Below are positions 24,586 through 34,218 of a stretch of DNA of 34,826 nucleotides, in pieces; positions within the stretch are counted from its first letter, which is position 1, and every line of letters begins with the position of its first letter. The stretch is taken from the IMG/VR virus record IMGVR_UViG_2877251553_000002; one strand, 5' to 3'. The notes under the pieces were generated by a model that worked only from the letters and a program-made list of their open reading frames with translations, did not search any database and was not told where the DNA came from. The DNA is from a virus. Its lineage: Duplodnaviria; Heunggongvirae; Uroviricota; Caudoviricetes. Position numbers and translations under genes: made by a program.

Positions 24586-25485
24586 TCATTTCAGGTATAA
24601 AAAAACCCGCATAAAGCGGGCTCTTTCAAATGTCCATGTGAAGTGGTCAACAAAAACTGGCCACCGAGTTAGAGTTTTTCCAGTATCGATTTTCCGATTC
24701 GTTTGGGGTAACCCACCGTTATATTCGTGCGGTCTTAGTGCGCTGTAATATCCAACGATATAGTCCGTTATGGCGTGAGCTGCCTCGCTGAAGCTTACGT
24801 AACCCACCACCGGCATCCATTCGTTCTTCAGACTCCTGAAGAAGCGTTCCATTGGGCTGTTATCCCAGCAGTTTCCGCGCCGGCTCATACTCTGTCTGAT
24901 CTGGTATCGCCACAATAACTGCCGGAACTGCCTGCTCGTATAATGACTGCCCTGATCGCTGTGGAACATCACCCCGCCGGGCTTACCACGGGTTTCCCAT
25001 GCCATTTCCAGCGCTTTCATGGTGAGCCTGCTGTCCGGCGAGAACGACATGGCCCAGCCCACTGGTTTTCTTGCGAACAGGTCGAGAACAACGGCGAGGT
25101 ACGCCCAGCGCTTACCCGTCCAGATACAGGTCACATCACCGCACCACACCTGATTTGGCTCGGTCACGGCGAACTGCCTTTCAAGGTAGTTAGGGATAGC
25201 AACATGTTCATGACCACCACGTTTATTCCGGTGAGTCGGCTGCTGACAGCTGACCAGCCCCAGCTCTTTCATGAGCCTGCCAGCAAGCCAGCGTCCCATC
25301 TGGTAGCCTCTCCGGGTTGCCATTGTGGCGATGCTTCTTGCTCCGGCCGAACCATGGCTGATGCCATGTAGCTCAAGTACCTGACTGCGTAATACAGCCC
25401 GTCTGCCGTCTGGTTTTTCAGGACGGTTTTTCCAGTATCTGTAGCTGCTGCGATGAACCCCGAACACTTGGCAGAGTGTGACCAC
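24586..25485 (-). CDS. IS911 OrfB (transposase catalytic part), variant reading through the IS end
   Basis: Matches IS3-family OrfB; G4 tract at 24705-24708 (C4 in IS sense) is one base shorter than the C5 tract of the fragment at 23607-23611, so the frame runs past the usual stop. Confidence 0.75.
24597..24622 (-). terminator. rho-independent terminator (late tR'-like), minus strand
   Basis: Stem CCCGC/GCGGG with 5-nt loop followed by a run of 7 T on the minus strand, upstream of the tRNA cluster and holin. Confidence 0.5.
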
Positions 25486-25886
25486 AGGATAATGCGCTCT
25501 GAGTTTCCCGATTATCGAGAACAGTTCAGGGAGTCTGACATCAAGAGCGCGGTAGCCTTTTTTAATATTTCATTCTCCATTTCAATGCGTTGTAGCTTTT
25601 TCCTCAGCTTACGTATTTCGATTTGTTCTGGTGTTATCGGAGAGGCTTTTGGTGTTTTGCCCTGACGCTCATCACGCAGTTGTTTGACCCATCTTGTCAT
25701 TGTGGAAAGGCCAACATCCATAGCTTTGGCGGCATCTGCCACCGTGTATTTCTGGTCAACAACCAGTTGAGCGGATTCGCGCTTAAACTCTGCGCTAAAA
25801 TTTCTTTTTTTCATTGGAGCACCTGTGTTGTTCTGAGGTGAGCATATCACCTCTGTTCAGGTGGCCAAATTCAGTGTGCCACTTCA
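24639..25886 (-). mobile_element. IS911 (1248 bp), copy B
   Basis: Ends TGAAGTGGCACACTGAATTTGGCC and TGAAGTGGTCAACAAAAACTGGCC (as reverse complement); orfA and orfB; flanking trinucleotides ATG and CTG do not form a target duplication. Confidence 0.9.
25512..25814 (-). CDS. IS911 OrfA
   Basis: [53 protein letters not shown]... (HTH and leucine-zipper regulator of IS911). Confidence 0.85.
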
Positions 25887-26224
25887 CTGATAAAAGCGCC
25901 CTGTACTGGTTAGCAATAGCAAATTTACTACCAGCTGCTCTGATTTCAAGAAAGCTGTACACCTCCCTTATGCCTATATTTTTAACCGGAACACCACCAA
26001 AGTATTCACTTATGATTTTCAACCTCTGGTTGTGTCTTTTCATGGTGTTTGTGCTTAATTGTCTACGCTCTATTTCATTTCTGAAATTTAATATCAGCTC
26101 GCAGAATAATGTTACGCTATTACCTTTTATTCTATCCAGTAAGCTTATATGTTGCGTGGATAATAATTCCATATTTGCCGCAATAGCCTCATTAACTGCA
26201 ATTCTTTTGTCTCTTCCGATTCCA
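25887..26224 (-). pseudogene. lambda-family integrase, internal N-proximal fragment
   Basis: Reads ...GIGRDKRIAVNEAIAANMELL...NSVTL...AIANQYRALLS up to the IS911 junction, colinear with lambda Int residues ~36-160; 5' end replaced by an IS1 terminus at 26225. Confidence 0.8.
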
Positions 26225-26352
26225 GGTGATGACTCCAACTTACTGATAGTGTTTTATGTTCAGATAATGCCCGATGACCTTGTCATGCAGCTCCACCGAT
26301 TTTGAGAACGACAGTGACTTCCGTCCCAGCCTTGCCAGATGTTGTCTCAGAG
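26225..26352 (-). mobile_element. IS1 terminal fragment (~128 bp)
   Basis: GGTGATGACTCCAACTTACTGATAGTGTTTTATGTTCAGATAATGCCCGATGAC... matches the IS1 end at 4461-4590, then is cut by the ISEc8-like terminus at 26353. Confidence 0.8.
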
Positions 26353-26388
26353 TAAGCGTGCAGCAAGAACCGTATTGACGGGGATGTG

Positions 26389-27927
26389 TTATTCAGTCGG
26401 CAGTGCTACGCGCCAGGGGAGCAGTTCGCCGACCCGGTTTATCGGCCAGTCGGCTATGACGTCAAGTACATAGCGGAGGTAGCTTTCTGGCTCCACTCCG
26501 TTCAGTTTGCACGTCCCGATCAGGCTGTACAGCAGCGCTCCCCGCTCTCCTCCATGATCCGAACCGAAGAACAGGTAGTTTTTGCGGCCCAGACTGACCA
26601 TCCGCAACGCATTTTCAGCGATGTTATTGTCCGCCTCAGCCCAGCCATCATCTGCATAGTACGTCAGCGCCGGCCACTGGTTCAGGGCGTATGCGAACGC
26701 TTTCGCCAGTTCTGAGTGTCGCGACAGGGTTTTCATCTTTTCACGCAGCCAGCTTTCCAGGGATTTCAGCAGCGGTTTCGTTTTCAACTGACGTTCGGCA
26801 AGGCGCTGCTCCGCCGTCATTCCCCTTATCTCTGCCTCGATGGCGTACAGTTCGCCGATCCGTTTCAGCGCTTCCTCCGTCAGGGCTGACGGGGTGCGAA
26901 CGTGCACATCGTGGATTTTACGGCGGGCGTGAGCCCAACAGGCGGCTTCCGTTATCCGGCCATCCCGGTACAGCTCGTTGAACCCGGCGTATGCATCCGC
27001 CTGCAGTACACCACTGAACCCCGCAAGATGGGTCTGCGGATGGATGCCTTTTCTGTCCGGGCTGTAAGCGAACCACACCGCCGGCGCCAGCGTTGACCCG
27101 GCGTTACGGTCGTCACGAACGTAGGTCCATAACCGCCCGGTCTTCGTTTTCTTATTGCCTGGCAACAGCACCGGGACAGGCGTGTCATCAGCATGGAGCT
27201 TACCGTCAGTCAGCACATAGTCCTGAAGCGCTTCTTCCAGCGGTGACAGTAGCCGGCAGCATGCATCCACCCAGCCCGACAGCAGTGAACGACTCAGCTC
27301 CACGCCCTGGCGGCCGTACATTTCAGACTGGCGGTACAGCGGGGTGTGCTCTGCATACTTTGAGATCAGCACGCGGGCCAGCAGCCCCGGTCCTGCGATA
27401 CCCCGCTCGATGGGCCGTGAAGGCGCGGGGGCCTGCACGATGGCATCGCACTGAGTACAGGCATGCTTTTCACGTACAGTCCGGATAACCCGGAAGACGC
27501 TGCGCATCAACTCCAGCTGTTCGGCGGCATCCTCACCCGGATAGCTCAGTGAGCCTCCACATTCCGGGCAGCATGACGCTGCCGGCAGCAGCCGTTTTTC
27601 ATCGCGGGGGAGTGATTCGGGGAACGGTTTGCGGGTGCGGGTTTGACGCAGCGGGCGCTGCACGGCCGGGTCGTCAACCCGACCGGTAAGGGTATCACTT
27701 TCTTTCTGAAGTGCCTTCAGGTCAGCTTCCATCTGTGCGATACGACGGGAGACTTTTTCGGAGCGGCTGCCGAAGTTCATCCGGCGCAGCTTATCCAGCT
27801 GTGCCTGCAGATGGTCTATTTCGCGTTCACGCTCGTTCAGCTTTTCCAGCAGGGCACGGTTCAGCGCCTCCTGTTCGGCAAGGAGACGTTTCAGTGCATT
27901 GATATCGTCAGGAAGTGAGCTGCTCAT
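26389..27927 (-). CDS. IS66-family transposase TnpC, intact (512 aa)
   Basis: Single uninterrupted ORF; the only intact TnpC among the three copies. Confidence 0.85.
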
Positions 27928-27975
27928 ACCGGGTATATTACCAGGCTCATTCAGCGTCGACCAGGATAAAGAGGC

Positions 27976-32798: not shown

Positions 32799-32888
32799 TG
32801 TTTATGCCGAACCTCCTCTGGTTCTGTTGATTGGGGAATCACAGATTATATCCGGAGGAAGGTTCGGCACCAGACGAGGTTTCTATAT

Positions 32889-32970
32889 ATGAGCATGAAA
32901 CTAATGGCAAAAGCAATGGAAATTAAAGTGGGTAATCCATTGCGTAAGCTGGTTCTGATTAAGCTGGCTG
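32889..32970 (+). pseudogene. 5' fragment of a gene cut by IS911 (possibly replication-initiator O-like)
   Basis: MSMKLMAKAMEIKVGNPLRKLVLIKLA runs directly into the IS911 left end at 32971. Confidence 0.3.
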
Positions 32971-33042
32971 TGAAGTGGCACACTGAATTTGGCCACCTGA
33001 ACAGAGGTGATATGCTCACCTCAGAACAACACAGGTGCTCCA

Positions 33043-33345
33043 ATGAAAAAAAGAAATTTTAGCGCAGAGTTTAAACGCGAATCCGCTCAACTGGTTGTTG
33101 ACCAGAAATACACGGTGGCAGATGCCGCCAAAGCTATGGATGTTGGCCTTTCCACAATGACAAGATGGGTCAAACAACTGCGTGATGAGCGTCAGGGCAA
33201 AACACCAAAAGCCTCTCCGATAACACCAGAACAAATCGAAATACGTAAGCTGAGGAAAAAGCTACAACGCATTGAAATGGAGAATGAAATATTAAAAAAG
33301 GCTACCGCGCTCTTGATGTCAGACTCCCTGAACAGTTCTCGATAA
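33043..33345 (+). CDS. IS911 OrfA
   Basis: [21 protein letters not shown]...; one substitution relative to copy B. Confidence 0.85.
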
Positions 33346-33371
33346 TCGGGAAACTCAGAGCGCATTATCCT

Positions 33372-34218
33372 GTGGTCACACTCTGCCAAGTGTTCGGGGT
33401 TCATCGCAGCAGCTACAGATACTGGAAAAACCGTCCTGAAAAACCAGACGGCAGACGGGCTGTATTACGCAGTCAGGTACTTGAGCTACATGGCATCAGC
33501 CATGGTTCGGCCGGAGCAAGAAGCATCGCCACAATGGCAACCCGGAGAGGCTACCAGATGGGACGCTGGCTTGCTGGCAGGCTCATGAAAGAGCTGGGGC
33601 TGGTCAGCTGTCAGCAGCCGACTCACCGGAATAAACGTGGTGGTCATGAACATGTTGCTATCCCTAACTACCTTGAAAGGCAGTTCGCCGTGACCGAGCC
33701 AAATCAGGTGTGGTGCGGTGATGTGACCTGTATCTGGACGGGTAAGCGCTGGGCGTACCTCGCCGTTGTTCTCGACCTGTTCGCAAGAAAACCAGTGGGC
33801 TGGGCCATGTCGTTCTCGCCGGACAGCAGGCTCACCATGAAAGCGCTGGAAATGGCATGGGAAACCCGTGGTAAGCCCGGTGGGGTGATGTTCCACAGCG
33901 ATCAGGGCAGTCATTATACGAGCAGGCAGTTCCGGCAGTTATTGTGGCGATACCAGATCAGACAGAGTATGAGCCGGCGCGGAAACTGCTGGGATAACAG
34001 CCCAATGGAACGCTTCTTCAGGAGTCTGAAGAACGAATGGATGCCGGTGGTGGGTTACGTAAGCTTCAGCGAGGCAGCTCACGCCATAACGGACTATATC
34101 GTTGGATATTACAGCGCACTAAGACCGCACGAATATAACGGTGGGTTACCCCAAACGAATCGGAAAATCGATACTGGAAAAACTCTAACTCGGTGGCCAG
34201 TTTTTGTTGACCACTTCA
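33372..34218 (+). CDS. IS911 OrfB variant lacking an in-IS stop (reads on into the integrase fragment)
   Basis: Same C4 tract variant (34149-34152) as copy B; the ORF track fuses it to the downstream integrase fragment as a 484-aa chimera. Confidence 0.75.

Follow-up and report, generated by a model that had tools for sequence, protein, structure and literature searches.

In the virus record IMGVR_UViG_2877251553_000002 of IMG/VR, a stretch of 34,826 nucleotides (nt) that we call the window, two full copies of the insertion sequence (IS) IS911 share the same lesion: a run of cytosines near their right end is one base shorter than in a third, fragmentary IS911 of the window, and the stop codon of the transposase gene is lost. 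A sequence-only reading had proposed that the shared lesion fits the two copies being recombination partners or products of gene conversion. Is the lesion real, and does it tell us how the two copies are related? We found that the copies are indeed recombination partners, as a split integrase gene and its target duplication show, but the shared lesion is no evidence for recombination. It is probably an artefact of the assembly and would otherwise be no more than a routine frameshift. We put the probability that it reflects two homopolymer under-calls, rather than biology, at roughly 60%.

The C tract and the end of the transposase gene

The three IS911 sequences of the window are named A, B, and C, and their tract length near the right end is given as C5 or C4. 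Fragment A (22958..23677, + strand) covers IS nt 530-1249 and has a C5 tract at 23607-23611. Copy B (24639..25886, - strand) and copy C (32971..34218, + strand) are full elements of 1,248 bp, with the right (IRR) and left (IRL) inverted repeats at 24639 and 25886 in B, and IRL at 32971 and IRR at 34218 in C. Read directly, the tract is GGGG at 24705-24708 in copy B (+ strand reading) and CCCC at 34149-34152 in copy C, so that C5 in the fragment and C4 in both full copies had been correctly reported. Around the tract, A, B, and C are identical apart from its length. Over their full length, B and C (with the same tract) differ only at IS positions 105, 364, and 911, where 105G and 364T are private to B and 911T is the variant of C.

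B and C are ordinary IS911 copies of the IS3 family, in a decayed prophage region of the Shigella-type chromosome CP026825.1, a GenBank entry to which window positions 19636-34826 are 100% identical without gaps. They are 99.6-99.7% identical to the VL7S7 copy, which PGAP labels IS3-like element IS911 family transposase with programmed frameshift. Each has an OrfA of 100 amino acids (aa) and an A6G motif (A AAA AAG) at IS nt 324-330, in the correct phase for -1 frameshifting, while the catalytic core of OrfB matches Pfam rve (E about 1e-31) and rve_3. The element ends read TGAAGTGG...CCACTTCA, and the terminal inverted repeats (5'-TG...CA-3') are imperfect, matching at 24 of 36 positions without gaps, with TGAAGTGG at both ends. 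The window copies resemble published IS911 (X17613) in the 100-aa OrfA, the A6G slip site, the rve core, the ends, and a 3-bp target duplication. Their lineage differs from it by a Tyr-to-Cys change beside the first catalytic Asp, a Tyr-to-Asn change, and C4 in B and C. The first change is nt 760 A-to-G (DVTYIW to DVTCIW; window 23188, 25127, and 33730) and the second nt 660 T-to-A (window 23088 in A, 25227 in B, and 33630 in C). Both 660A and 760G are common to A, B, and C, against other IS911 copies, and both changes are absent from the representative IS911 copies of S. flexneri and E. coli.

With C5, the stop of OrfB is a TGA at IS nt 1239-1241 of 1249, inside the 36-bp right repeat. This is the case in all C5 copies and in fragment A, where OrfB ends in ...SNSVASFC and the TGA lies 9-11 nt from the element end. 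The C4 frame has no stop ahead of the element end, so OrfB of B and C as written is not terminated within the right repeat. In copy B, the read-through frame (24586..25485, - strand) encodes 299 aa from its first GTG, exits the element at 24639, and stops 53 nt on, in the tRNA-side flank. In copy C, the frame (33372..34826, + strand) encodes 484 aa and continues for 608 nt past the element, to 34826, as an in-frame fusion to a fragment of an integrase catalytic domain; the part outside the element is in the true integrase frame (Pfam Phage_integrase, residues 329-475). Both frames had been described from the letters alone, including the fusion, and both are confirmed. If the A6G -1 frameshift is taken into account, the predicted OrfAB is 409 aa in B and 594 aa in C, versus 389 aa for a C5 copy. 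The C4 frameshift starts at residue 371 of 389, exchanges an 18-aa tail for 22 element-encoded residues followed by flank-encoded ones, and shortens the rve_3 match by its last 4 positions and the rve_2 match by about 13. An exact-product look-up over 153 billion gene positions returned the 237-aa product of copy B and the 422-aa product of copy C, both with the ATG start of the gene caller, from CP026825.1 only. Exact look-ups of the 484-aa and 299-aa GTG-start products gave no match, because the gene caller uses a later ATG.

Which tract length is the normal one? In 5,426 complete E. coli genomes, a 258-nt C5 query gave hundreds of perfect matches, and the equivalent C4 query found the exact C4 end in 1 of 5,172 matching E. 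coli records, a truncated fragment flagged as frameshifted by PGAP. Among species-representative genomes (one per species), all 26 matches were C5, including those in Shigella flexneri, Escherichia albertii, Salmonella arizonae, and Raoultella, with some elements only 85-91% identical. A perfect C4 end was found in a single plasmid record, CP026843.1 (Shigella dysenteriae), which is the plasmid of CP026842.1, and IMG/VR proviruses held 5 C4 stretches versus 81 C5 stretches. All of these counts are dominated by C5, in line with the earlier description of C4 as a contraction; judged by them, C5 is the standard and ancestral form and C4 is derived from it.

The published reference appears to match neither length. 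Published IS911 is 1,250 bp (X17613, Shigella dysenteriae, as cited in PMC4924310) with an OrfAB of 382 aa (PMC2909936), and the common genomic C5 copies are 1,249 bp with an OrfAB of 389 aa. One base added anywhere in nt 1169-1216 (e.g., making C6; window 34139-34185 in copy C) yields both 1,250 bp and 382 aa, and it also gives OrfB 299 codons when read from an ATT at nt 321; the published figures are obtained only with an extra base in this 48-nt interval. OrfB was reportedly given as 299 aa with an AUU start by Polard et al. 1991. The deposited X17613 thus appears not to be C4, but it appears not to be C5 either, since its published lengths fit one extra base in that interval, and the transposase C termini of the deposited reference and of common genomic IS911 seem to differ.

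Single-base losses from G and C runs

We audited homopolymers by comparing the whole window with the nearest available sequence for each of its parts. Among G/C runs of at least 5, 14 of 45 were shorter by one base and none was longer, while A/T runs of at least 5 were shorter in 0 of 126 cases and longer in 1 (Fisher p = 1.3e-9). The contraction rate was about 0.4% for runs of 3, 5-6% for runs of 4, 20% for runs of 5, 67% for runs of 6, and 75% for runs of 7 or more. Against two enteroinvasive E. coli relatives (0.3% substitutions), G/C runs of at least 5 were short in 8 of 26 cases and A/T runs in 0 of 42. The G/C losses are deletions only, run-length dependent, and, at nearly all sites, assembly-specific, and CP026825.1 under-calls C5/G5 runs at a rate of 16-33%. 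In a control audit, about 70 loci of other assemblies showed 0-2 such events each, with two C4-bearing IMG/VR loci (L034 and L037) standing out as the window does. Since the source assembly under-calls C5/G5 runs, two C4 calls among three IS911 tracts are unremarkable: at a C5 rate of 16-20%, the chance that at least two of three are contracted is p about 0.07-0.10.

The orthologous tracts in sister assemblies were read in the order A/B/C. They are 5/4/4 in CP026825.1 (the window) and CP026832.1, 5/5/5 in CP026807.1 and CP026823.1, -/5/5 in CP026828.1, -/-/5 in CP026834.1, CP026819.1, UYIT01, and AKNG01, and 4/5/- in the error-rich CP026842.1, where B is un-inverted. The copy C orthologue is therefore C5 in seven of nine assemblies, the C4 calls being those of CP026825.1 and CP026832.1. 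The copy B orthologue is C5 in five of seven (CP026807.1, CP026823.1, CP026828.1, CP026842.1, and the related locus L042), with C4 also in CP026832.1. Fragment A is C4 only in CP026842.1 and C5 in CP026825.1, CP026832.1, CP026807.1, and CP026823.1. At these orthologous positions, C4 calls occur only in assemblies with G/C-run deletions, and no C4 tract was seen at the examined loci of clean assemblies. The C4 copies in three further loci (L033, L036, and L001) and in metagenome contigs L030-L032 are without a background of G/C-run deletions. A protein search with the C4 tail, aimed at short-read evidence for C4 on the IS911 background of this lineage, found no exact-match representative from short-read sources, only diverged relatives with frameshifts of their own.

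Read-through IS911 copies at other loci, of which those in CP026825.1 bring its number to at least five at different loci, are always in assemblies of the same Shigella batch. One such copy, at panB, is in CP026825.1 and PTES01; another, at cysJ, is in five assemblies of two clades about 20 substitutions apart; and a third, encoding 246 aa, is in CP026825.1, PTES01, and CP026797.1. For the 246-aa copy, C5 is read in two IMG assemblies; one of these and PTES01 are 1 mismatch and 7 G/C-run deletions apart in 4.7 kb. For C4-type copies at such other loci, C5 orthologues are thus present in nearly identical assemblies that have another origin.

The orthologous prophage was also compared across 10 sister assemblies. 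Over 7.3 kb there are 5 variable substitution sites and at least about 17 indel sites (listed for window 10834-15767). All but one of the listed indels are G/C-run deletions, which vary between assemblies, follow no phylogenetic order, and recur at the longest runs. The remaining one, G3 to G2 near 15730, is common to all sister assemblies and is probably real. Contracted G/C5 runs numbered 21 of 37 in CP026842.1, 4 of 12 at the window's locus in CP026825.1, 9 of 36 in CP026823.1, 5 of 25 in CP026840.1, 4 of 24 in CP026815.1, 2 of 25 in CP026805.1, 0 of 36 in CP026807.1, and 0 in UYIT01, AKNG01, CP045784.1, PSSQ01, CP026834.1, CP026819.1, and CP026828.1. Genes are broken as a result of such calls or kept whole from one assembly to the next: a lytic transglycosylase is intact (673 aa) in UYIT01, CP026807.1, CP045784.1, and PSSQ01 and broken in the window (12919..13917 and 13929..14594, with further pieces) and in several sisters. 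Likewise, modF, modB, and panB have C5 or G4 contractions in CP026825.1, at most also in CP026842.1, and not in other sisters. Elsewhere in the window, G/C runs that have lost one base start at 6051, 8736, 10458, 10835, 13955, 14643, 15136, 17106, 21156, 21433, 21844, 29555, 31496, 31507, 31889, 32325, and 32481.

The same problem is seen, to a varying degree, in CP026823.1, CP026842.1, CP026840.1, CP026815.1, CP026805.1, PTES01, CP026866.1, and CP026867.1. The error-rich CP026825.1, CP026823.1, and CP026842.1 are present in one sample of the collection only, and cleaner sisters in two; the former may have been left out of RefSeq.

Systematic deletions of G and C in homopolymers are known from PacBio RS II assemblies (PMC8574707). 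Long-read-only assemblies of this type show the same G/C-only deletions, length dependence, between-assembly variation, and broken genes, although the errors are far denser here, at roughly one per 1.5 kb, than in that report, which counted 37 per E. coli genome. We propose that the assembly under-calls G/C homopolymers systematically, presumably as a residual long-read consensus error, and that C4 in B and C would then be probably two independent under-call events, which fragment A escaped. If so, the lost stop, the 299-aa and 484-aa open reading frames (ORFs), and the OrfB-integrase chimera would all be absent from the cell. Our figure for this reading balances the likelihoods against the low prior probability of two real events.

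Other origins of the shared C4 state

Several observations weigh against under-calling. CP026832.1 has the same A5/B4/C4 pattern, yet its other runs are mostly intact (contracted in 0 of 11 G/C5, 0 of 3 G/C6, and 1 of 2 G/C7 runs), and under independent errors such a match would be a coincidence of roughly 1%. Another 13 kb of CP026832.1, aligned to an E. coli reference, contains 0 G/C5 runs and so does not sharpen this rate; contractions there affect 0 of 31 G/C4 and 0 of 1 G/C6 runs. Within the window, all nine G5 runs of the IS66-family elements (3 runs in each of 3 copies) are intact, two external copies agreeing; by this count, being a repeat does not in itself account for the C4 calls. 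Natural frameshifts at or near the tract do exist: three metagenome contigs have one C4 copy in common, and read-through in the same frame is seen in diverged IS911 relatives from short-read collections. Finally, position 660 of copy B looks like gene conversion, which makes a conversion origin of a real C4 plausible.

These points would be accommodated if C4 were real and inherited in a sub-lineage comprising the CP026825.1 and CP026832.1 strains. A -1 slippage in one full-length IS911 would have been followed, after the inversion described below, by short-patch gene conversion to the inverted partner 7 kb away, and both copies would encode a transposase with an altered, flank-dependent C terminus, a case of pseudogenisation. 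We consider this possible but doubtful. Besides the pattern shared with CP026832.1, whose other G/C5 runs are intact, and the natural frameshifts of relatives in this 3' region, it draws on the mosaic nature of the IS911 copies: all four pairwise combinations occur among positions 364, 660, and 911 and the tract, so that the four-gamete test fails. Position 660 of copy B varies between sisters, which together with the mosaicism points to recombination or conversion among copies. Here 660A is seen only in the window's assembly, the sisters having T, and suggests gene conversion between copies or, alternatively, possibly consensus cross-talk. The history required is nevertheless demanding, as the conversion tract must take nt 1179, spare nt 911, and end at most 70 nt from the edge of homology. 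Moreover, AKNG01, a separate assembly with 1 substitution from the window in 6 kb, has C5 in copy C, and no substitution groups CP026825.1 with CP026832.1 apart from AKNG01. Every other line of evidence makes C5-to-C4 calls in CP026825.1 unreliable, and the C4-type copies at other loci have the C5 orthologues mentioned above.

Were C4 real, transposition of B and C would probably be impaired, because the IS911 transposase prefers acting in cis (PMC5009743). The tail may tolerate change, however, since the tail of the experimentally active 382-aa form seems to be different again.

Two independent real slippages in B and C, with the C5 tract as a mutational hot spot in neutral, decaying copies, seem improbable to us. 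In their favour, C4 is found on several different IS911 sequence backgrounds, and other frameshifts of relatives cluster in homopolymers of the last 70 nt. Yet two rare events would be needed in one short lineage, and then the same two again, or their inheritance, in CP026832.1, whereas C4 is vanishingly rare in high-quality genomes. It would be just as bold to suppose that the full-length IS911 copies of one Shigella sub-lineage have been homogenised by gene conversion to a stop-less allele that reads through into neighbours, here making an in-frame chimera of OrfAB and a tyrosine recombinase. Together with the 382-aa form, the last 70 nt would then be a three-state frame switch (C4, C5, and one extra base); we give this scenario little credence.

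Least likely of these readings is that C4 marks a functional IS911 sub-family that reads through its right end into target DNA and has multiplied in the lineage, with the tract as a switch. The five or more read-through copies of CP026825.1 at different loci would suit it, as would the published active IS911, whose 382-aa OrfAB seems to be in another 3' frame than the C5 form, so that the C terminus tolerates change. However, the C5 orthologues of B, C, and the 246-aa copy show that these did not insert as C4, the read-through copies are confined to assemblies with homopolymer errors, and the rve_2 and rve_3 profiles lose their last positions through the frameshift. A phase-variable homopolymer switch was rejected, as C4 at orthologous A, B, and C is confined to assemblies with G/C-run deletions and the product depends on the flank.

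Partial integrase proteins of draft contigs end beside the tract, which may reflect k-mer size or copy heterogeneity; they were not used.

IS911 inversion splits the prophage integrase gene

The tract is most likely an under-call; the relationship between B and C is clear from their flanks. The N-terminal half of a phage tyrosine integrase (25887..26224, - strand) abuts the IRL of B and matches positions 9666-10003 of the uninterrupted integrase region of E. coli FDAARGOS_943 (locus L029). The C-terminal half (34219..34826, + strand) abuts the IRR of C and matches positions 10001-10608 of the same region, on which the two halves overlap by exactly 3 bp (CAG). The junctions read ...TTTTATCAG|IRL and IRR|CAGACATTTT..., where the intact gene reads ...TTTTATCAGACATTTT.... 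One copy of the target duplication is at 25887-25889 (CTG on the + strand, CAG in gene orientation) and the other at 34219-34221 (CAG). The 3-bp duplication is thus reconstructed from the left flank of B and the right flank of C, and neither present copy has one of its own, as expected because an inversion swaps flanks. Since one integrase gene is divided between B and C, and one 3-bp duplication likewise, these findings show that they are recombination partners, the products of an IS911 x IS911 inversion.

The sequence of events is thereby shown: one IS911 inserted into the phage integrase gene, duplicating CAG, and then recombined with a second, inverted IS911 beside a phage tRNA cluster, flipping 7.1 kb and giving B and C. 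Within the inverted segment (25887..32970) lie elements of the IS66 family, a fragment of IS600, and the Rha/cI/cro/ydaT region of a lambdoid prophage. The segment is un-inverted in CP026842.1 (order tRNAs, IS911, ydaT side), and this order is partly present in L042, which also has the tRNA-side junction, with C5. A composite transposon, a 9.6-kb unit bounded by inverted IS911 copies, was considered and rejected because the inner and outer flanks pair as an inversion; the outer flanks, CAT (B) and CAG (C) when read in element orientation, form no flanking duplication.

What of the shared C4? CP026807.1 and CP026823.1 are colinear with the window over 19.6-34.8 kb and have the same inversion and the same three IS911 sequences, with C5 at A, B, and C; because these same-inversion sisters have C5/C5, C4 is not a consequence of the inversion. 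Nor is sharing it evidence of a crossover, because after a reciprocal crossover a mutation is present in just one of the products.

The second parental element, that of copy B, has flanks CTG and CAT with no matching duplication, which implies an earlier rearrangement or deletion there. At 22955/22958, a truncated phage structural gene directly adjoins fragment A, and this junction, together with the CTG/CAT flanks, points to further IS911-mediated deletions or rearrangements. These junctions suggest that such rearrangements brought a myovirus-like prophage remnant (1-22955) next to a lambdoid one at the ybhA-mod locus. Relatives of the myovirus-like remnant carry an ipaH gene alongside.

Other indels of the window are of a different kind. 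A (CAGT)3 repeat is one unit short, relative to the enteroinvasive E. coli relatives, at about 3070 and at about 9615, once per strand. The loss at about 9615 splits a baseplate J-like gene (9570..10022 and 8785..9567), and it looks like a real slippage mutation because the truncated product recurs in many independent Shigella-type assemblies, clean ones included. Of the three copies of the IS66-family element (1-2348, 17914-20260, and 26352-28700), the middle one is one A short near 18751 (CATCAGCATGG to CATCGCATGG), outside any homopolymer, and its TnpC is split into 260 and 324 aa. This split may be real, because a similar one (324 aa and a second piece) is called at the matching position in CP026807.1 and CP026815.1.

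These findings call for caution: single-base differences in G/C runs should not be taken as biology in this window or in the CP0268xx, PSS*, and PTES* Shigella assemblies, which covers many apparent pseudogenes, split phage genes, and the OrfB-integrase fusion ORF. If C4 were confirmed, the locus would be a small, clean case of gene conversion between inverted IS copies. The inversion itself resembles the IS-mediated inversions of Shigella and enteroinvasive E. coli, with the same swapped flanks, a split gene and its duplication, and both orientations among sister strains, differing from them in a second parental element without a matching duplication (CTG versus CAT). The solid biology of this locus is thus an IS911-mediated inversion that splits a prophage integrase, an instance of textbook Shigella genome plasticity.

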